Source of the DNA: Actinomycetes bacterium
Lineage (GTDB): Bacteria; Actinomycetota; Thermoleophilia; RBG-16-64-13
Reading direction: 5' to 3'
Length of the DNA stretch: 64,000 nucleotides
Assembly: GCA_024637095.1 (NCBI GenBank)
Contig: JAGXFV010000024.1
Location: 770-64,769 of the forward strand
Shown: positions 26,737 to 48,798 of the stretch, piece by piece
How positions within the stretch are numbered: position 1 is the stretch's first letter
Layout of the letters: the number at the start of each line of letters is the position of its first letter
Program-made: the position numbers and the translations under genes
The notes under the pieces: model-generated
What the model was told of the DNA's origin: nothing
The model's database searches: none
The model's input: the letters and a program-made list of their open reading frames with translations, nothing else

Positions 26737-30525
<3,789 letters not shown>

Positions 30526-30675
30526 ACGGGTCACTCCTCGTTGAGACGGGCAAGGGCTAGCGAACGAACGCGCAAACTCGGATATTAGCACAGCTCTGCA
30601 AACGCGCACAAGCCCGGCGGGGCACCACTTTAGGCACCCCTAACCGGGCTCGAGAACTGCTGACGACGAAGTTCG

Positions 30676-31083
30676 TTACTTGACCTCGACGGTCGCGCCG
30701 GCTTCTTCCAGCTGACCTTTGACCTCTTCGGCCTCGTCTTTGGTGATGGCTTCCTTGACGGCGTTCGGCGCGTTGTCAACCAGATCCTTGGCCTCTTTGA
30801 GGCCCAGACCGGTGATCTGCCGGACGACCTTGATCACTTGTATCTTCTTGTCGCCGGCCGCCTGAAGGACGACGTCGAACTCGGTCTGCTCTTCGGCCTC
30901 GGCCGGAGCGGCTCCCGCGGGGGCGGCGGCGGCTACGGGGGCGGCGGCGCTCACGCCAAACTCCTCCTCCAGGGCCTTGACGACCTCCGCCAGTTCGAGC
31001 ACGGACATCTTCTTGATCTCTTCAATAAGCTCTTGAGAGTTCATACTGCTGTTCACCTCCTCCCCCACACAATCGGGGCGCAT
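30676..31083 (-). CDS. rplL: 50S ribosomal protein L7/L12
   Basis: 135 aa [31 protein letters not shown]. Confidence 0.95.
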
Positions 31084-31119: not shown

Positions 31120-31643
31120 CTAGGCCGCCTGCGCCTTCTGCTCTCGAATTTGGTCCAGGGCGATGGTAAACCCGCGGATCGGCCCGGTCAGCACGGTTGC
31201 AAAACCGTACAGCGGCGCAGCGATCCCACCGATGACCTTGGCCACCAGCTCGTCACGGCTGGGCAGAGAGGCAAGCTCCTCCACCTGCGACGCAACGATC
31301 AGATGATCGCGCAGGAATCCGCCCTTGACCGTGAGCTTCTTGTAACTCTTCGCGAAATCCTGGATGGCTTTGGCCGGAGCGACCGGATCGTCGTCACAGT
31401 AGGCGATGGCGGTCGGACCTTCCAGCATGGGGCCGACTCCTTCCATGCCGGTCTGACCCACCGCCCGCAGCGCCAATGTGTTCTTGACCACCTTGAGCTC
31501 GGCGCCCGCCTCGCGCAGCTTGCTGCGCAGCTCGGTCGCCTCGGACACGGTGATCCCACGATAATCCACCAGGAAGTACGAAGGATGGCTTTTCAGATCG
31601 TCGACGATCTCGTTGACCGCGGCGACCTTCTCCGGTTTCGGCA
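31120..31643 (-). CDS. rplJ: 50S ribosomal protein L10. The start is corrected to the ATG at 31643 (MPKPEKVAAVNEIVDDLK), which has a GGAGG SD.
   Basis: The ORF track start at 31896 adds 84 aa that overlap the divergent nrfH upstream region; SD gaaggagggagg lies immediately upstream of ATG 31643. Confidence 0.9.
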
Positions 31644-31955
31644 TCTGCCTCCCTCCTTCATCGCACAAAAAAACGCCCACCCCGAGACGGAGATGGACGA
31701 TGAGGGCGATCGAGGGCTGCCTGTTGGCCGTCTCGCTCGCGTCTAACGTCTGCCTCGGCCGGCCGATGAAGCGCTCTTCATCATTTCGGCCACCCCGCGG
31801 GGCGGCGCCGGCTGTCTCGGGCTTGGCCGAGCAGTATAGCACGGCCTCCAAGTGACTGGCATTCTCGCGGGTGGTTGTTTGAGAAATGGGTAACAAGCGG
31901 ATGGAGGTGTCTGCGCGGATGCGATCCCAGATCGGGATACAGGGAGGATGATGCC
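31644..31955. promoter_or_regulatory. Divergent regulatory region. It holds the rplJ-rplL leader (the expected L10(L12)4 autoregulatory site) on the minus strand and the nrfHA promoter on the plus strand.
   Basis: 312-nt non-coding interval between two divergent starts. The L10-leader function is inferred from the conserved rplJ position; no specific motif was verified. Confidence 0.4.
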
Positions 31956-32426
31956 ATGGCTGCAGGGCATTGGAAAACGAGGACGGTCATCCTAGGAGCG
32001 GTCCTCGGCCTAACTGTCCTTGGAGTCTTCCTCGCGTTTGGCCCCCCCGAACTCTTCGCACGATCCGAGGAACCCGAATTCTGCGGTGGGGCCTGCCACC
32101 CGATGGAAGCCAACTACGAATCCTGGTTTCACGAGGGTCCCCACCGGCAGGTCAAGTGCGTCGATTGCCACCTGCCCAACACCAGCACTCCCCGGCACCT
32201 ATGGCAGAAGGGACTGGACGGCGTGCATGACTTATGGGTGTTCTCCACCGACCAGGTTCCGGACGAGATCGAGCTTTCCGAACGAGGACAATCGGTGGTC
32301 CAGGAGAACTGCCTGATCTGCCACGGAGCCATGACCACGCACATCGATCAGGAGAGGACCTGCTGGGACTGCCACCGCGGCATGTCTCACGGCTTCGGCG
32401 GATCGGTCGAGGCGAAGAACCTTTGA
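31956..32426 (+). CDS. nrfH: Cytochrome c nitrite reductase small subunit NrfH (membrane-anchored tetraheme quinol dehydrogenase of the NapC/NirT family)
   Basis: 157 aa MAAGHWKTRTVILGAVLGLTVLGVFLAF (TM anchor); four CxxCH (CGGACH, CVDCH, CLICH, CWDCH); SD agggagg 9 nt upstream of ATG 31956. Confidence 0.88.
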   Translation: MAAGHWKTRTVILGAVLGLTVLGVFLAFGPPELFARSEEPEFCGGACHPMEANYESWFHEGPHRQVKCVDCHLPNTSTPRHLWQKGLDGVHDLWVFSTDQVPDEIELSERGQSVVQENCLICHGAMTTHIDQERTCWDCHRGMSHGFGGSVEAKNL

Positions 32427-32449
32427 CCTCGCAGGGGAGTGAGCAAGTT

Positions 32450-33937
32450 ATGAGACAAAAAGTGCCTGGATTTCTGGTCTTGGCCGCGCTCGTCGTGGCC
32501 ATCCTTCCGCTCGCGCTCGGCTGCGCGCCGGACAAGCCAGAGGCCGTGAAGACAGGGACGATTCCGGCCGACACCGTGGATCCCAAGGTCTGGGGAAACC
32601 TCTACCCCGTTCAGTACGACCTCTGGCTGGCCACCAGCGAAGACCGCCCCGCGGGCGAGAGCCCATATAAGCGAGGGGGCGACGAGGGCAAGGTCGTCTA
32701 CGACAAGCTGAGCGAGTACCCCTTCATGGCCCTCCTCTTCAACGGCTGGGGTTTCGGGGTCGAATACAACGAGCCGCGCGGACACGCCCACATGGTCACC
32801 GACCAACTGGAGATAGACCCCTCGCGGGTCAAGTCCGGCGGCGCCTGCCTTACCTGCAAGACTCCGTATGCCCCCTCGATGTACGAGGAGCAGGGCGCCG
32901 GCTACATGGGCGATCCGTATCTGGAGGTGCACTCGCGCATCCCCAAGGAATTTCAGGAACTGGGAGTGACGTGCATCGATTGCCACGACAACGAGACCAT
33001 GGCGATCAAGCTCAGCCGTCCCGCCTTGACCGACGCCTTGGAGGACATAGGCTTCGACCACGAAGGAGCGACGCGTCAGGAGATGCGGACCCTGGCCTGC
33101 GCCCAATGCCACGTCACGTACGTGCTCCAGCGCGATGAGGAGATGAAGCCGGTCGAGCTCATCTTCCCCTGGGAGGGAAGCAACGAGGGCGCCATCACCA
33201 TCGAGAACATCATCGATGTGATCAAGGATGAGCCCTCCTACTACGAGTGGAAACAGGGCGTCACCGGGTTCAAGCTGGCGTTCATCCGCCACCCGGAGTA
33301 CGAGTTCTTCACGGCCGGGAGCGTGCACGCGAATGCCGGTCTGTCCTGTGCCGACTGCCACATGCCCTACACCCGGGTGGGCTCGGCCAAGGTGAGCGAC
33401 CACGATGTGACCAGTCCGCTGAAGAACGAGATGGAAGCGTGCCGGCAGTGCCACCCCAGCTCCATCGAGGACCTGAAGGAACAGGTGGTGGCGATCCAAG
33501 AGCGCACCCTTTCGATGACCAATCGCGCCGGCTATGCCACCGCGGTCTCGGCCAAGCTGTTCGAGACCACGCACAAAGCTAAGGAGGCGGGTCGGCAGGT
33601 CGATCAAGCGCTCTATGATCAGGCCAAGGAGTTCTACCTGCAGGCCTTCTACCGCACGAATTACCTTGGCGCCGAGAACTCGCTCGGCTTCCACAATCCC
33701 AGTGAGGCAGGACGGATCGCGGGCGACGCGATCGCGATGGCGACCCAGTGCCAGGCCCTGCTCCGCCAGGCACTGACGGAGGCCGGGGTATCAGTGCCGG
33801 CCGCCGTCAACCTCGAGTTGGGCACGTACCTCAATGACCGGGGCGAGAAGGGTCTGATGTTCGACACGGAAGTGGAGCTCAAAGACCCAACCGGAGTGCA
33901 GGATCTGCTCACCCCAGCGGAGTCTCTCGGTTATTAG
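32450..33937 (+). CDS. nrfA: Cytochrome c552 nitrite reductase catalytic subunit NrfA (pentaheme; CxxCK active-site heme plus four CxxCH). Predicted lipoprotein.
   Basis: 495 aa MRQKVPGFLVLAALVVAILPLALGC (lipobox LALGC); CLTCK, CIDCH, CAQCH, CADCH, CRQCH; the ORF track start is over-extended (32234). Confidence 0.88.
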   Translation: MRQKVPGFLVLAALVVAILPLALGCAPDKPEAVKTGTIPADTVDPKVWGNLYPVQYDLWLATSEDRPAGESPYKRGGDEGKVVYDKLSEYPFMALLFNGWGFGVEYNEPRGHAHMVTDQLEIDPSRVKSGGACLTCKTPYAPSMYEEQGAGYMGDPYLEVHSRIPKEFQELGVTCIDCHDNETMAIKLSRPALTDALEDIGFDHEGATRQEMRTLACAQCHVTYVLQRDEEMKPVELIFPWEGSNEGAITIENIIDVIKDEPSYYEWKQGVTGFKLAFIRHPEYEFFTAGSVHANAGLSCADCHMPYTRVGSAKVSDHDVTSPLKNEMEACRQCHPSSIEDLKEQVVAIQERTLSMTNRAGYATAVSAKLFETTHKAKEAGRQVDQALYDQAKEFYLQAFYRTNYLGAENSLGFHNPSEAGRIAGDAIAMATQCQALLRQALTEAGVSVPAAVNLELGTYLNDRGEKGLMFDTEVELKDPTGVQDLLTPAESLGY

Positions 33938-33984
33938 CCACGCTGGAGTAAGAGCGGGGCCGCATCCCCAGCTCCACACGCAGG

Positions 33985-34027
33985 AAAGCCCGCTCCCGGG
34001 AAAGAAGTCCGGAGCGGGCTTTCTGAT
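33985..34027. terminator. Bidirectional intrinsic terminator hairpin between convergent nrfA (+) and rplA (-)
   Basis: aaagcccgctccc-gggaaagaagtcc-ggagcgggcttt with a T-run (tttctgatt) on the plus strand. Confidence 0.5.
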
Positions 34028-34077
34028 TCCAACCAGCGCCTTCCCGCCACGGCGGGTCGCACATAACCAGCGAGGGA

Positions 34078-34815
34078 CTAGAGGGCCGCTTCTGCCGCCG
34101 CAGCCTCCTCGAGTTCATCGATCAGACCCCGGCTCTTGGTCGAGTCAACGGGTATGCCCGGGCCCATGGTGCTCGTCAGCGTGATCGAACGCAGATACTT
34201 GCCCTTGGCCGCCGCCGGCTTGGCGCGGATGAGCTCGTCCAGCATCTCGGCGTAGTTCTCGACGATCTGCTTCTCGCTGAAGGACTTCTTGCCGATGATC
34301 ACGTGTACCACGCCGAACTTGTCGGTGCGGTACTCGATCTTGCCGCCCTTGGTATCCTGCACCGCCTTGGCCACGTCGAAGGTGACGGTACCGGCTTTGG
34401 GATTGGGCATCAGTCCTCGGGGACCGAGCACTCGTCCGAGCTTACCGACCACGCCCATCATGTCGGGGGTGGCAATCGCAGCATCGAAGTCGATCTCGCC
34501 GGCCTCGACCCTGGCGGCCAGGTCCTCGGCGCCCACTACGTCTGCACCGGCCTCCTGGGCCTCGGTGGCTTTGTCACCTTTGGCAAAGACCGCGACGCGA
34601 ACCACCTGACCGGTGCCGTTGGGCAGCATGAGCGTGCCGCGCAGTTGCTGGTCGGCGTGCCGGGGATTTACCCCCAGCTTCATATGCACTTCGATGGTCT
34701 CGTCGAACTTAGCCGAGGGGAGTTGCTTCAGTAACTGAACGGCTTCGACGGGGGAGTACTCGCGGGTGACGTCCACAGAGCGACGCGCCTCGCGGTAGCG
34801 CTTGGAACGGGCCAT
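34078..34815 (-). CDS. rplA: 50S ribosomal protein L1
   Basis: 245 aa [30 protein letters not shown]. Confidence 0.95.
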
Positions 34816-34952: not shown

Positions 34953-35381
34953 CTAGCGGCCCTCCACGGTTACGCCCATGCTGCGGGCCGTGCCGGCGAT
35001 AATCTGCATCGCGCCCTCGACGTCGTTGGCGTTGAGGTCGGGGAGTTTGGTCTCGGCGATCTCCCGAAGCTGGGCTCCGGTGATTTTGCCCACCTTGTCG
35101 CGGTTCGGCACGCCTGATCCCTTGTCGATCCCAGCGGCCTTCCGGATGAGCACAGCCGCCGGCGGGGTCTTCGTGATGAAGGTGAAGGAGCGGTCCTCGA
35201 AGACGGTGATCTCCACCGGAATGATCGTCCCAACGCTGTCCTGCGTCTGGGCGTTATACGCCTTCGTGAACTCCATGATGTTGATCCCGTGCTGGCCAAG
35301 CGCAGGGCCCACTGGGGGGGCCGGGGTCGCCTTTCCCGCCGGAATCTGCAGTTTGATGATTGCCCTAACTTTCTTCGCCAC
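34953..35381 (-). CDS. rplK: 50S ribosomal protein L11
   Basis: 142 aa [34 protein letters not shown]. Confidence 0.95.
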
Positions 35382-47097: not shown

Positions 47098-48552
47098 TCA
47101 GCCGCCTCTGACGCCTCTTTCGATACGTTCTCCGACCTCTGGGTCGATGTTGCGCCAATATTCGAAGGCGCGCTGCAGCACAGGCTCGGACACGCCGTTT
47201 GCCAGATGACCCGCCACATTGGAGACCAGTAGGTCGCGCTGGCGGTCGTCCATGACTTCGCGCACCAGGGTGCCGGGCTGGACGAAGTCGCCGTCATCAC
47301 TGTGCGGAGTGTAGGCGGCGCGGACGAACTCGCCATTGGTGCTCCACACGGCAGCCTCGGGGTACCGCTCGGGGTCGGGCGTGGGTCCCCCCTTGGAGTT
47401 GGGCGTGTAAACCGGATCGGAGACGTTGTCGATCCTCATCTTCCCGCCCTTGCTGTAGTTGTGCACCCCAGCCTTTGGCCGGTTGACGGGGATCTGCTTG
47501 TAGTTGACCCCCAGGCGTGCCCGGTGGGCGTCGCCGTAGGAGATCAAGCGAGCAAGCAGCATCTTGTCCGGGCTGGGCCCGATCCCGGGGACGAGGTTGC
47601 TCGGCTCGAACGCCGCCTGCTCAATCTCGGTGTGAAAATCGCTCGAGTTGCGGTTAAGCGTGAACCGGCCGACCTCCTGCAGGGGGTAGTCGCCGTGAGG
47701 CCAGACCTTGGTGAGGTCGAAGGGGTTGAAGCGGTAGCTCTCGGCCTCTTCGAAGGGCATGATCTGGACCTTGAAAGTCCAACTGGGGTAGTCGCCTCGC
47801 TCGATCGCGTCGAATAGGTCGCGCCGGTGATAGTCGGCGTCCGCCCCGGCTATCTGGTCGGCCTCCTCCTGGGTGAGGTTCTCGATACCCTGGTCGGTCT
47901 TGAAGTGGTACTTCACCCAAAAGCGCTCACCTTCGGCGTTGACCCACATGTACGTGTGGCTCGTATAGCCATTCATGTTGCGGTAGCTCTTGGGGACGCC
48001 TCTGTCGCTCATCAGGATGGTGACCTGGTGGGCGGATTCCGGAGACAGGGTCCAGAAGTCCCACTGCATGTCGTGGTCGCGTAGGCCGCTGTCCGCCCGG
48101 CGTTTCTGGGAGTGGATGAAGTCCTGGAACTTCATCGGGTCGCGGACGAAGAACACCGGCGTGTTGTTGCCCACCATGTCGTAGTTGCCCTCGGTGGTGT
48201 AGAACTTGAGGGCGAAGCCGCGGACGTCGCGCCAGGTGTCGGGGCTGCCGCTCTCGCCGGCTACCGTGGAGAACCGGGCCAGCATGTCGGTCTTCGTCCC
48301 CGGCTGGAACACGGCCGCCTTGGTATAGGCGCTGGCGTCCTGAGTCACCTCGAAGTGCCCAAAGGCCCCCGACCCTTTCGCGTGGGGCTGGCGGTCCGGG
48401 ATCATCTCCCGGTTGAAGTTGGCCATCTGCTCCATGAGGTAGTGATCCTGGAGCAGGATCGGCCCGTCGGGACCGACAGTCAGAGAGAACTCGTCGCTCG
48501 ACACGGGAATCCCCGCATCAGTGGTGGTCGGCTTGCGGCCCTCGGTTCCCAT
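47098..48552 (-). CDS. katA: Monofunctional heme catalase (clade 3 / KatA-like, ~484 aa)
   Basis: ...[18 protein letters not shown]-type motif (here [21 protein letters not shown]), ...[19 protein letters not shown]..., proximal Tyr region [14 protein letters not shown]; the start is corrected to ATG 48552 ([10 protein letters not shown]). Confidence 0.9.
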
Positions 48553-48798
48553 GGCGTGAATGCCTCGCTTTCTATGCGTCTGGGTGGAATGCGGCTCTTC
48601 AGTCTCACAAAAATACCGCAAGGGCCTGGCAATGACCAAGAGAGCGCCTGCGGAGCGCTCGCTCGAATCCCCGCACAGTGAAGGGCTACGAGTTGGTATC
48701 CCCCAGGTGAGTGGCCCTCTGTCAGCGATTGGCACGGCCGTCCGCGTACTGAAGGACGGCCTGGAGAATGAAGTAGCCGCGCCGCCCCCGCGGCCTGC

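Follow-up and report, generated by a model that had tools for sequence, protein, structure and literature searches.

An nrfHA operon at the boundary of two ribosomal operons in a Thermoleophilia-like actinobacterial lineage

Why should an operon for nitrite ammonification sit between the genes for ribosomal proteins L1 and L10? The stretch of DNA considered here, a 64-kb window from an uncultured Thermoleophilia-like actinobacterium, has nrfH and nrfA lodged between rplA and rplJ, within what is otherwise the rplKAJL-rpoBC block. The arrangement raises several questions. Is the pair likely to be functional, and does it carry control signals of its own? Is the site special, or simply permissive? 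And could the placement itself matter to the cell? Based on sequence comparisons, we propose that the locus very probably holds a functional, self-contained nrfHA cassette, which became fixed at the rplKA/rplJL-rpoBC boundary in the ancestor of one clade and has been inherited vertically since.

Identity and surroundings of the nrfHA pair

Both genes that border the pair lie on the minus strand: rplJ (L10; 31120-31644; PF00466, 106.9 bits) is the first gene of the rplJL-rpoBC unit, and rplA (L1; 34078-34815; PF00687, 229.4 bits) is the last gene of the rplKA unit. The gap between them measures 2433 bp, against a median of 161 bp in 51 loci, and holds a two-gene operon in place of the canonical contiguous order, in which rplA is followed directly by the rplJ leader. 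Within some 35 kb occupied by genes for translation and transcription, the two genes of this operon, nrfH (31956-32426) and nrfA (32450-33937), are the sole ones on the plus strand. Their coordinates and strands bear out the initial annotation in that the pair diverges from rplJ, across a spacer of 311 bp (31645-31955), and converges on rplA, across one of 140 bp. The composition of the pair, also described there as native, is indeed close to that of its neighbors: GC3 is 0.76 in nrfH and 0.84 in nrfA, compared with 0.79 to 0.85 in the flanking genes, and the GC content of the region (0.61 to 0.64) is that of the flanks. Around the cassette there are no integrase or transposase open reading frames and no flanking direct or inverted repeats beyond the chance level, and the region does not have the makeup of a mobile genomic island or transposon.

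Re-translation and Pfam searches agree on the gene identities and heme motifs first read from the DNA. By homology, the 156-residue NrfH is a membrane-anchored tetraheme menaquinol dehydrogenase. It begins with a hydrophobic transmembrane helix, RTVILGAVLGLTVLGVFLAFG, and has four CxxCH motifs (CGGACH, CVDCH, CLICH, and CWDCH), the first of them in the CxxCHxM form that is typical of the family. The protein matches PF03264 with 51.8 bits and NrfH of Desulfovibrio vulgaris (2j7a_C) with an E value of 2.4e-10, and in the latter alignment the CxxCHxM motif (CGGACHPM) and an Asp coincide. Its match to TIGR03153 spans the full length of the model (positions 7-138 of 138) and, at 127.1 bits, is 7 short of the equivalog cutoff of 134.2.

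NrfA (495 residues) carries a CLTCK motif at residues 133-137 and four CxxCH motifs (CIDCH, CAQCH, CADCH, and CRQCH), all of which are aligned in the structures 6v0a and 8bcx. PF02335 is matched with 465.7 bits (cutoff, 24.1) over profile positions 1-427 of 438, and the structures 8bcx (629 bits) and 6v0a from Geobacter (Trichlorobacter) lovleyi (621 bits) are about 60% identical over the full length. The NCBIfam equivalog cutoffs are missed by a wide span (209.5 versus 595 for NF008339 and 157.1 versus 692.5 for TIGR03152); since these models appear to represent the calcium-dependent NrfA types of gamma- and epsilonproteobacteria, the shortfall bears on membership in those subfamilies, not on the NrfA fold.

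To which type, then, does the enzyme belong? The segment I-R280-H281-P-E of NrfA lines up with I-R277-H278-P-E of the G. lovleyi enzyme, in which R277 is reported to be the arginine that stands in for calcium (Campecino et al. 2020). Geobacter NrfA has an arginine in place of the calcium ion, and the arginine-type, calcium-independent subclass occurs in actinobacteria (PMC12285233). Judged by its sequence, NrfA of the window is a member of this already known subclass. Second-sphere residues align as well: Arg126 and His281 align with Arg122 and His278 of G. lovleyi NrfA, for which the roles of such residues have been described (PMC11925055), and the Tyr of CAQCHVTY, kept in both 6v0a and 8bcx, is presumably a further second-sphere catalytic residue. 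Both genes are under purifying selection, with dN/dS values of 0.16 for nrfH and 0.07 to 0.12 for nrfA (overall range for nrfHA, 0.07 to 0.17).

Known Nrf systems place the pair in context. The NrfA proteins of 6v0a and 8bcx share with that of the window the CxxCK and four CxxCH motifs. In these two proteins and in window NrfA alike, an Arg-His pair takes the place of the calcium ligand that precedes the distal His in calcium-dependent NrfA, and both the G. lovleyi and the window proteins begin with a Cys-containing, lipobox-like signal. The differences lie in the host, G. lovleyi being a member of the Desulfuromonadota, in the genomic location, and in the fact that the window enzyme is known from sequence. 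NrfH2A4 of D. vulgaris (2j7a and 2vr0) comes from the same two-gene nrfHA arrangement without adjacent maturation genes, and its NrfH likewise has one transmembrane helix, four hemes, a CxxCHxM first motif, and the aligned Asp; in contrast, its NrfA is calcium dependent and reaches merely 177 to 180 bits against window NrfA, and identity between the NrfH proteins is low. The nrfHAIJ system of Wolinella succinogenes also pairs an NrfH-type quinol dehydrogenase with a CXXCK NrfA, in a system II (Ccs) background, but its operon encodes the CXXCK synthase NrfI (PMC12285233), which has no counterpart in the window or beside related loci.

Does this last difference make the locus anomalous? The initial annotation noted that a heme lyase was lacking from the window, and this part stands: neither nrfEFG nor nrfI lies in or next to the operon within the 64 kb, and the ten largest nonribosomal open reading frames of the window have no ResB or CcsA Pfam match. 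In motif searches run without a positive control, no W-rich CcsA/CcmF signature was found in the six frames of the window, no CcsA-like motif in the flanks of any of 86 NrfA loci, and no W-rich synthase motif in the six frames of all 166 loci. Treating the absence as out of the ordinary is not warranted, however, in that Wolinella NrfI is the only documented case of a dedicated CXXCK lyase adjoining nrfHA (PMC12285233). Operons of nrfHA without an adjacent heme lyase are the norm.

Candidate control elements and hairpins around the cassette

It had been suggested that nrf expression signals and an L10 leader must share one spacer. Candidate elements of both kinds can in fact be located within 31645-31955. 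On the rplJ side, the 5' leader (31645-31839, minus strand) is a homologue of the L10 leader. At Rfam gathering thresholds the window yields tRNAs only, and the L10 leader emerged solely in a permissive local search, with a full-length RF00557 match at 31659-31839 that scores 25.2 bits (local E value, 0.053), below the gathering score of 44. The leader lies directly 5' of rplJ, contains, at 31699-31674, an attenuator hairpin that resembles a terminator and is followed by T7, and is 93.8% identical to that of the Soudan_30 genome (L006), compared with 71% for the adjoining spacer; the L10 proteins of the two are 94% identical. A helix of the form AGACAGCYGGC...GCCRGCCGAGG, also present in Thermoleophilia and Gaiellaceae relatives, shows covariation: in an alignment of 12 relatives, 8 of its 15 pairs have double changes, and pair 17/71 occurs as CG (5), UA (4), and AU (1). 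The Rfam L10 leader occupies the same site and has the AGACAGC...CCGAGG helix and a terminal terminator-like hairpin with a U-run; the subthreshold score sets the window leader apart as an actinobacterial/Thermoleophilia variant, of which one relative (L019) scores 28.2. On the strength of position and covarying structure, rplJ keeps its own L10 leader, predicted to be autoregulatory. A promoter-like match, the candidate extended -10 TGCTATACT (31833-31841, minus strand), could serve as the rplJ promoter, P(L10). This -10 is kept in the window, in Soudan_30, and in a JGI contig (L086), whereas the -35 is not, and other Actinomycetota have similar TAnnnT boxes at a distance of 10 to 15 nt upstream of their leaders.

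On the nrfH side, a 20-nt element, (C/T)TTGAGAAATGGGTAACAAG, lies upstream of the gene at 31878-31897 (plus strand) and is a candidate operator or promoter element. It recurs with 0 to 2 substitutions in L006, L086, and a 448-kb ENA contig (L166), and it is identical in two further loci (L002 and L003), where NrfA is 78% identical and nrfHA is flanked by genes for an adenine glycosylase and an RNase H; across the window and 1.77 Mb of loci, no other match with at most 3 mismatches was found. Because the element is common to the window and to loci at another site, the nrfHA cassette would appear to carry its own control region, and we infer that the 20-nt sequence is an nrfHA control element. 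As for its class, inspection revealed no fit to an FNR/CRP site (TTGAT-N4-ATCAA) or to a sigma-54 or DosR site; only one heptamer-like ATGGGTA could be aligned with a NarL 7-2-7 site, and the spacing is wrong for a SigB/SigF promoter (GTTT-N15-GGGTA). Closer to the gene, just 5' of the nrfH Shine-Dalgarno sequence GGGAGG (31942-31947), is a palindrome, ATCCC-N5-GGGAT (31924-31938, plus strand), which is kept in the window, L006, and L086; in L166, the two arms have changed in concert (GTCCC...GGGAC) around a larger loop. The palindrome is probably a hairpin of the 5' untranslated region or an operator.

At the other end of the cassette, the predicted hairpin common to the ends of nrfA and rplA was found and is conserved. 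A bidirectional terminator-like hairpin, GAAAGCCCGCTCC on one strand and GGAGCGGGCTTTC on the other (33984-34023), lies between the convergent genes. Its 13-nt arms (33984-33996 and 34011-34023) are 100% complementary, its fold has z-scores of -4.2 on the plus strand and -3.4 on the minus strand, and its stem is invariant in four genomes, while identity in the spacer around it is only 51%. These observations are consistent with a hairpin that terminates both nrfA and rplKA. A second small hairpin, CCCGCC-AC-GGCGGG (34043-34056), proximal to the rplA stop codon, is shared by the window, L006, and L086 and appears in the minimum free energy folds.

Distribution of the arrangement and the nature of the site

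How far does the arrangement extend? The order rplJ-nrfHA-rplA is colinear in four independently assembled relatives at about 88 to 92% nucleotide identity: a Logan assembly (L005, 100%), the metagenome-assembled genome (MAG) Soudan_30, the JGI contig, and the ENA contig. Colinearity with the window extends over 5 kb at 89.9% for Soudan_30 and over 12.5 kb at 89% for the ENA contig. In the next NrfA relatives (72 to 78% identity) and in 79 further NrfA loci, nrfA is sited elsewhere, and in the nearest other genomes (Gaiellaceae, with RplA about 70% identical) rplA and rplJ are adjacent. The initial annotation held that a clade-wide arrangement would not be novel; the arrangement is indeed shared, but within one narrow clade (four members, 88 to 92%) and not by the next relatives, so nrfHA cargo at the rplA/rplJ site is, in this sampling, lineage specific. 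The dS values of 0.24 to 0.57 show that the insertion predates the divergence of the clade lineages; since a long branch separates the clade from the next relatives in the sample (RplA, about 70%), neither the age nor the donor of the insertion can be fixed. The contigs of the 72 to 78% NrfA relatives (L001 to L004) have a GC content of 0.66 to 0.68 and Pkinase and PASTA neighbors, which suggests that they too are from Actinomycetota. The report on the Soudan MAGs does not discuss nrfA of Soudan_30 or its location (PMC8042283), and the global nrfA survey has no text on Actinomycetota or synteny (PMC10716430).

Is the junction itself unusual? The initial annotation saw a rare break in a universal block. 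The rplKAJL-rpoBC order is conserved, but the rplA/rplJ junction is a known weak point: more than 1 kb lies there in 9 of 80 sampled rplA loci, all from Actinomycetota, and in 8 more of the 80, rplJL is elsewhere. Eight of the nine lie outside the clade of the window, with cargo unrelated to nrfHA, such as RsgA with a G8/beta-helix protein, MoxR with DUF58, MarR/DUF2087 with PAC2 and a nitroreductase, or a methyltransferase. The mmaA-lipG genes of Mycobacterium tuberculosis and open reading frames of Streptomyces occupy the same position between rplA and rplJ. Actinomyces israelii and Bradyrhizobium diazoefficiens, too, have genes that part rplKA and rplJL (PMC12993453), and rplJL forms an operon of its own in actinomycetes (PMC2904383). 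We attribute the weakness of the junction to its being the boundary between two self-contained operons. Other split clusters likewise have foreign genes at this boundary and keep the rplJL promoter and leader; the cargo of the window differs in being a multiheme respiratory operon of opposite orientation, a kind found at the site only in this clade.

A proposed explanation and its meaning

In the explanation that we favor, a cassette consisting of a 20-nt control element, a 5' untranslated region hairpin, nrfH, nrfA, and a bidirectional terminator would have been fixed in the common ancestor of a single narrow clade of uncultured Actinomycetota affiliated with the Thermoleophilia. Based on homology, NrfH, held by one transmembrane helix, would oxidize menaquinol, and the electrons would travel via its four hemes to NrfA. 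The latter, probably lipid anchored on the outer face of the membrane, would reduce nitrite to ammonium at the lysine-ligated heme, with R280 in place of the active-site calcium, as in the Geobacter enzyme. The rplKA unit would end at the hairpin that also ends nrfA. The location would be tolerated because nothing essential is split and rplJ keeps its own promoter and L10 leader, and a block on read-through from rplKA into rplJL would leave the two ribosomal units fully uncoupled. The data can be explained without any functional tie of nitrite reduction to the ribosomal genes.

What would such an enzyme do for its host? It may serve respiration, detoxification, or scavenging of trace nitrite. 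One tentative alternative, to which we give clearly less weight than to the explanation above, is that NrfHA is mainly a detoxification or side-activity enzyme acting on nitrite, NO, hydroxylamine, or sulfite, and not an energy-conserving respiratory ammonifier. NrfHA of D. vulgaris serves nitrite detoxification, and the window contains no nitrate reductase gene. In the Soudan brines, the home of one clade member, neither nitrate nor nitrite is detectable, yet rapid turnover can also leave nitrite undetectable (PMC8042283). Also against this alternative, the quinol-dehydrogenase partner NrfH is present and under selection, and the closest characterized homologue, that of G. lovleyi, supports dissimilatory nitrate reduction to ammonium (DNRA) (PMC12285233).

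Could the position itself be functional? The back-to-back control regions of rplJ and nrfH, about 116 bp apart, might couple nitrite reductase with ribosome and RNA polymerase synthesis, through the supercoiling of divergent transcription or through a common regulator, with selection retaining nrfHA at the site. Only 40 bp lie between the -10 of P(L10) (31833-31841) and the nrf element (31878-31897), and four lineages that have diverged to dS 0.2 to 0.6 all retain the arrangement. Inertia alone, however, predicts retention over so short a divergence, the same cassette and 20-nt element occur in the nonribosomal neighborhood of L002 and L003, and the unrelated cargo in other Actinomycetota argues for a permissive site and not for selected coupling. 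We therefore regard such coupling as improbable. The same low standing applies to the notion of an adaptive placement, in which an nrfHA control region back to back with the strong L10 promoter, together with a bidirectional terminator behind rplA, would have rewired the cluster so that rplJL-rpoBC is free of rplKA read-through and nrf is tied to ribosome and RNA polymerase synthesis; the tie would act through supercoiling or through a common regulator on the 20-nt element.

That the locus is a recent genomic island or an assembly chimera, and not a stable part of the chromosome, is a reading we reject as highly improbable: although the closest NrfA proteins beyond 72% identity come from Desulfobacterota-labeled MAGs, which implies transfer between phyla at some time, and a comparison of the window with L086 shows nrfA to be more diverged than the genes beside it (dS, 0.57 versus 0.04 to 0.12), a hint of recombination, the same junctions in four independent assemblies (NCBI, JGI, ENA, and Logan), both colinear at 89 to 90% identity, together with the native GC and GC3, the purifying selection, and the lack of any integrase, transposase, or flanking repeat in the region, largely refute it.

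What does a self-contained cassette at an operon boundary mean more broadly? An nrfHA pair between ribosomal operons amounts to a curiosity; no new system is at hand, the site is a natural operon boundary that often holds extra genes in Actinomycetota, and the understanding of Nrf enzymes and of ribosomal operon control is left unchanged. Nonetheless, it clearly illustrates that the rplA/rplJ boundary is the preferred breakpoint of the “universal” rplKAJL-rpoBC block, which is useful for synteny anchors and operon prediction. The clade would be a clean test case for an acknowledged open question, namely, how heme is attached to CXXCK in a system II, NrfI-less Gram-positive organism, and the 20-nt element offers a handle on an nrf regulator in actinobacteria. 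Finally, records of DNRA potential in Actinomycetota are sparse, and arginine-type NrfHA from an uncultured Thermoleophilia-like lineage of soil and the deep subsurface is an addition to them.

A predicted nitrite-ammonifying pair on the opposite strand

Two plus-strand open reading frames, nrfH and nrfA, lie between rplA (34078-34815, minus strand) and rplJ (31120-31644, minus strand), and retranslation, motifs, and profile matches bear out the initial annotation of this pair in every structural detail. The nrfH product (31956-32426, plus strand; 156 aa) combines an N-terminal hydrophobic helix with four CxxCH motifs, matches NapC/NirT (PF03264), scores slightly below the cutoff of the NrfH model TIGR03153 (127.1 versus 134.2 bits), and aligns to Desulfovibrio vulgaris NrfH (2j7a_C), first heme motif (CxxCHxM) included. 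The nrfA product (32450-33937, plus strand; 495 aa) carries CLTCK and four CxxCH motifs and matches PF02335 at 465.7 bits. Among solved structures, the closest to this protein are 8bcx and 6v0a (Geobacter lovleyi; 621-629 bits, about 60% identity), whereas the calcium-dependent classical NrfA structures score only 120-185 bits. Arg280-His281 align to G. lovleyi Arg277-His278, and Arg126 aligns to Arg122, residues whose roles are described for the G. lovleyi enzyme (PMC11925055). Geobacter NrfA has an arginine at the site where other NrfA enzymes bind calcium, a substitution that arose several times, actinobacteria included (PMC12285233). Given that arginine-type NrfA has already been described, the window enzyme is a member of a known subclass. 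Like G. lovleyi NrfA, it has an N terminus (…LPLALGC) similar to a lipoprotein signal; in a presumably monoderm host, such a signal would anchor NrfA in the membrane on its outer face.

The heme lyase that a CxxCK heme normally requires had been noted as missing from the window. Indeed, no CcsA, ResB, or CcmF-type genes were found in the 64-kb window or beside related actinobacterial loci, and a CcsA-type W-rich motif was absent from the flanks of all 86 NrfA loci in a search run without a positive control. Among system II organisms, a CXXCK synthase has been confirmed only in Wolinella (NrfI), Shewanella has no dedicated CXXCK lyase, and the route in other organisms is unknown (PMC12285233). 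Since NrfI stands alone in this respect, the lack of a lyase gene in the window is typical of nrfHA loci rather than anomalous.

The minus strand also encodes rplK (34953-35381), rplL (30676-31083), rpoB (26737-30609), secE, nusG, and rpoC and then the str, S10, spc, and alpha ribosomal operons. From about 1.9 to 36.9 kb, the codon-position GC signature marks no plus-strand genes other than nrfH and nrfA. About 45 consecutive minus-strand genes and four tRNAs run from secE to rplQ (1900-36900), a supercluster that includes rpoBC, fusA, tuf, the S10/spc/alpha operons, secY, adk, and map, with nrfHA as the sole unit on the other strand. Transcription of nrfHA is probably head-on to the replication fork, provided that the supercluster runs in the direction of replication. 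Separately, the 3' end of rpoB (26737-27070, minus strand) encodes a roughly 100-residue, very acidic, low-complexity tail (...LADEEE) past the usual RpoB region, and a long N-terminal extension is possible if the first GTG is used.

Inheritance and phylogenetic reach

The convergent and divergent layout (rplJ and rplA on the minus strand, nrfH-nrfA between them on the plus strand) recurs in four further assemblies: a Logan assembly of SRR13628066 (L005; 100% identity), Soudan_30, a MAG and GTDB representative from the Soudan iron mine (L006; RplA 97%, NrfA 90%, and RpoB 96%), a JGI metagenome contig whose protein is labeled "Thermoleophilia bacterium" by NCBI (L086; NrfA 92%), and a 448-kb ENA contig (L166; NrfA 92.5%). 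The window aligns colinearly to Soudan_30 over 5 kb at 89.9% and to the ENA contig over 12.5 kb at 89%; we therefore set aside an assembly chimera, as the four further assemblies share the junctions. The dN/dS ratio is 0.16 in nrfH and 0.07-0.12 in nrfA (dS, 0.24-0.57), which argues that the pair has been kept by selection since before the clade lineages split. The native-looking composition noted initially holds, with GC (0.61-0.64) and GC3 (0.76 in nrfH and 0.84 in nrfA) matching the flanking genes, and no mobility genes or flanking repeats were found around nrfHA. Purifying selection, native composition, and the lack of such genes and repeats likewise set aside a recent genomic island.

Between the window (32450-33937) and the JGI contig (760-2244), dS is 0.57 in nrfA and 0.27 in nrfH, versus 0.12 and 0.04 in adjacent rplA and rplK; against Soudan_30, the values for nrfA, nrfH, and their ribosomal neighbors are comparable (0.19-0.44). 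The nrfA excess may reflect allelic recombination within the clade or a codon-bias constraint that is stronger on ribosomal genes.

The next NrfA relatives, at 78% and 72% identity, sit in other neighborhoods: nrfHA lies between adenine glycosylase and RNase H genes in L002 and L003 and follows an amino-acid permease gene in L001. No ribosomal neighbors occur at 79 further metagenomic NrfA loci of 57-64% identity, a range in which the named sequences are mostly from Desulfobacterota. Conversely, rplA and rplJ are adjacent in the genomes that come next by RplA similarity (about 70% identity; Gaiellaceae and other Thermoleophilia MAGs). Taken together, these two comparisons indicate that nrfHA as cargo at this site is confined to a single narrow clade, which sits on a long branch; relatives share the arrangement within that clade and not beyond it. 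To our knowledge, nrfHA at the rplA-rplJ junction has not been described previously.

The junction and its candidate expression signals

Across 80 fetched rplA loci, rplJ lies within 450 bp of rplA in 51 (median gap, 161 bp) and more than 1 kb away in 9, all of them from Actinomycetota and one of them Soudan_30; in 8 others (2 Actinomycetes, 4 Chloroflexia, 1 labeled cyanobacterial, and 1 Elusimicrobia), no rplJL was present within the 3-10 kb available downstream (4-10 kb for the Chloroflexia and Actinomycetes loci). Outside the nrfHA clade, the cargo is unrelated to nrf and is 1.5-4.3 kb long in other Actinomycetota MAGs: an RsgA GTPase and a G8/beta-helix protein (L025, 10690-14977), a MoxR ATPase with DUF58 (L029, 9631-13486), a MarR/DUF2087, PAC2, and nitroreductase trio (L031, 10678-13069; L032, 10702-13184; L033, 4682-7022; L041, 10705-13045), a methyltransferase (L023, 10687-12358), and a further unrelated insert (L030, 2494-4010). 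M. tuberculosis and Streptomyces also have genes at this junction. In Actinomyces israelii and Bradyrhizobium diazoefficiens, other genes stand between rplKA and rplJL (PMC12993453), and in Streptomyces coelicolor and mycobacteria, rplJL forms an operon by itself and has a start site of its own (PMC2904383). Because the junction parts two self-regulated transcription units, it is permissive to insertions. The interruption of the conserved block is thus genuine but, given 9 of 80 loci with more than 1 kb at the junction, less surprising than supposed.

Upstream of rplJ, the L10 leader (RF00557) gives a full-length, sub-threshold match of 25.2 bits (31659-31839), similar to that of a Thermoleophilia relative (L019; 28.2 bits), and terminates in a hairpin plus T7 (31699-31674). 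An alignment of 12 relatives shows an AGACAGCYGGC...GCCRGCCGAGG helix with compensatory changes, and identity between the window and Soudan_30 is 93.8% in the leader and 71% in the adjacent spacer. A candidate extended -10 box, TGCTATACT (31841-31833), kept in the clade, precedes the leader core CCCGAGACAG by 13 nt; other Actinomycetota have comparable boxes ahead of the leader. In cargo-free Gaiellaceae relatives (L007, L010, L012, L024, and L077), the leader core begins about 25-30 nt past the rplA stop with no intervening hairpin, so read-through from rplKA into the rplJ leader is likely there. In the window clade, the cassette and its putative terminator are predicted from sequence to preclude such read-through. 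That terminator, proposed initially as shared by nrfA and rplA, corresponds to a hairpin at 33984-34023 with perfect 13-bp arms, A-rich on one flank and T-rich on the other, which does not vary across four genomes, whereas identity in the remaining spacer is only 51%; this conservation supports a terminator function.

About 60-75 nt upstream of nrfH lies a 20-nt element, CTTGAGAAATGGGTAACAAG (31878-31897, plus strand), kept in all four clade members as (C/T)TTGAGAAATGGGTAACAAG (L006, 12951-12970, minus strand; L086, 175-194; L166, 5415-5434). It is identical in L002 (3859-3878) and L003 (1697-1716), whose NrfA is 78% identical and whose neighborhood differs, and no other match at up to three mismatches exists in 1.77 Mb of fetched sequence or the window. 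Being common to two neighborhoods and otherwise absent, the element is part of the cassette. It is probably an operator or promoter element, judging from this distribution, and a candidate binding site for an actinobacterial nrf regulator. It did not fit the consensus patterns of FNR/CRP, NarL, SigB/SigF, sigma-54, or DosR. A palindrome, ATCCC-N5-GGGAT (31924-31938), precedes the nrfH Shine-Dalgarno sequence. In the ENA contig (about 5460-5492), both arms have changed together (GTCCC...GGGAC) and the loop has grown to 21 nt and is self-complementary, which suggests a 5' untranslated region RNA hairpin rather than a fixed-spacing operator.

Proposed function and standing

The nrfHA pair is intact and selected, with complete diagnostic motifs, a conserved upstream element and downstream hairpin, and a candidate rplJ promoter and leader that remain intact. 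We posit that NrfH would oxidize menaquinol and pass electrons to NrfA, which would reduce nitrite to ammonium at its lysine-ligated heme, with Arg280 replacing calcium. In this model, the cassette would be transcribed by itself, divergently from the candidate rplJ promoter, and the hairpin would terminate both nrfA and rplKA, leaving no read-through into rplJL. The loci and window compared gave no evidence of functional coupling of nrfHA to the ribosomal genes.

A full-length monofunctional catalase gene (47098-48735, minus strand; PF00199, 619 bits), 13 kb away from nrfHA, hints at oxygen or peroxide exposure in a genome with relatives from anoxic brine. In the Soudan brines, neither nitrate nor nitrite is detectable (PMC8042283). 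Respiration, detoxification, and scavenging are all candidate physiological roles for NrfHA. Overall, the initial observation is confirmed and its interpretation is partly supported: this is a known NrfA subclass in a known permissive junction, and the nrfHA cargo found there is lineage-specific.
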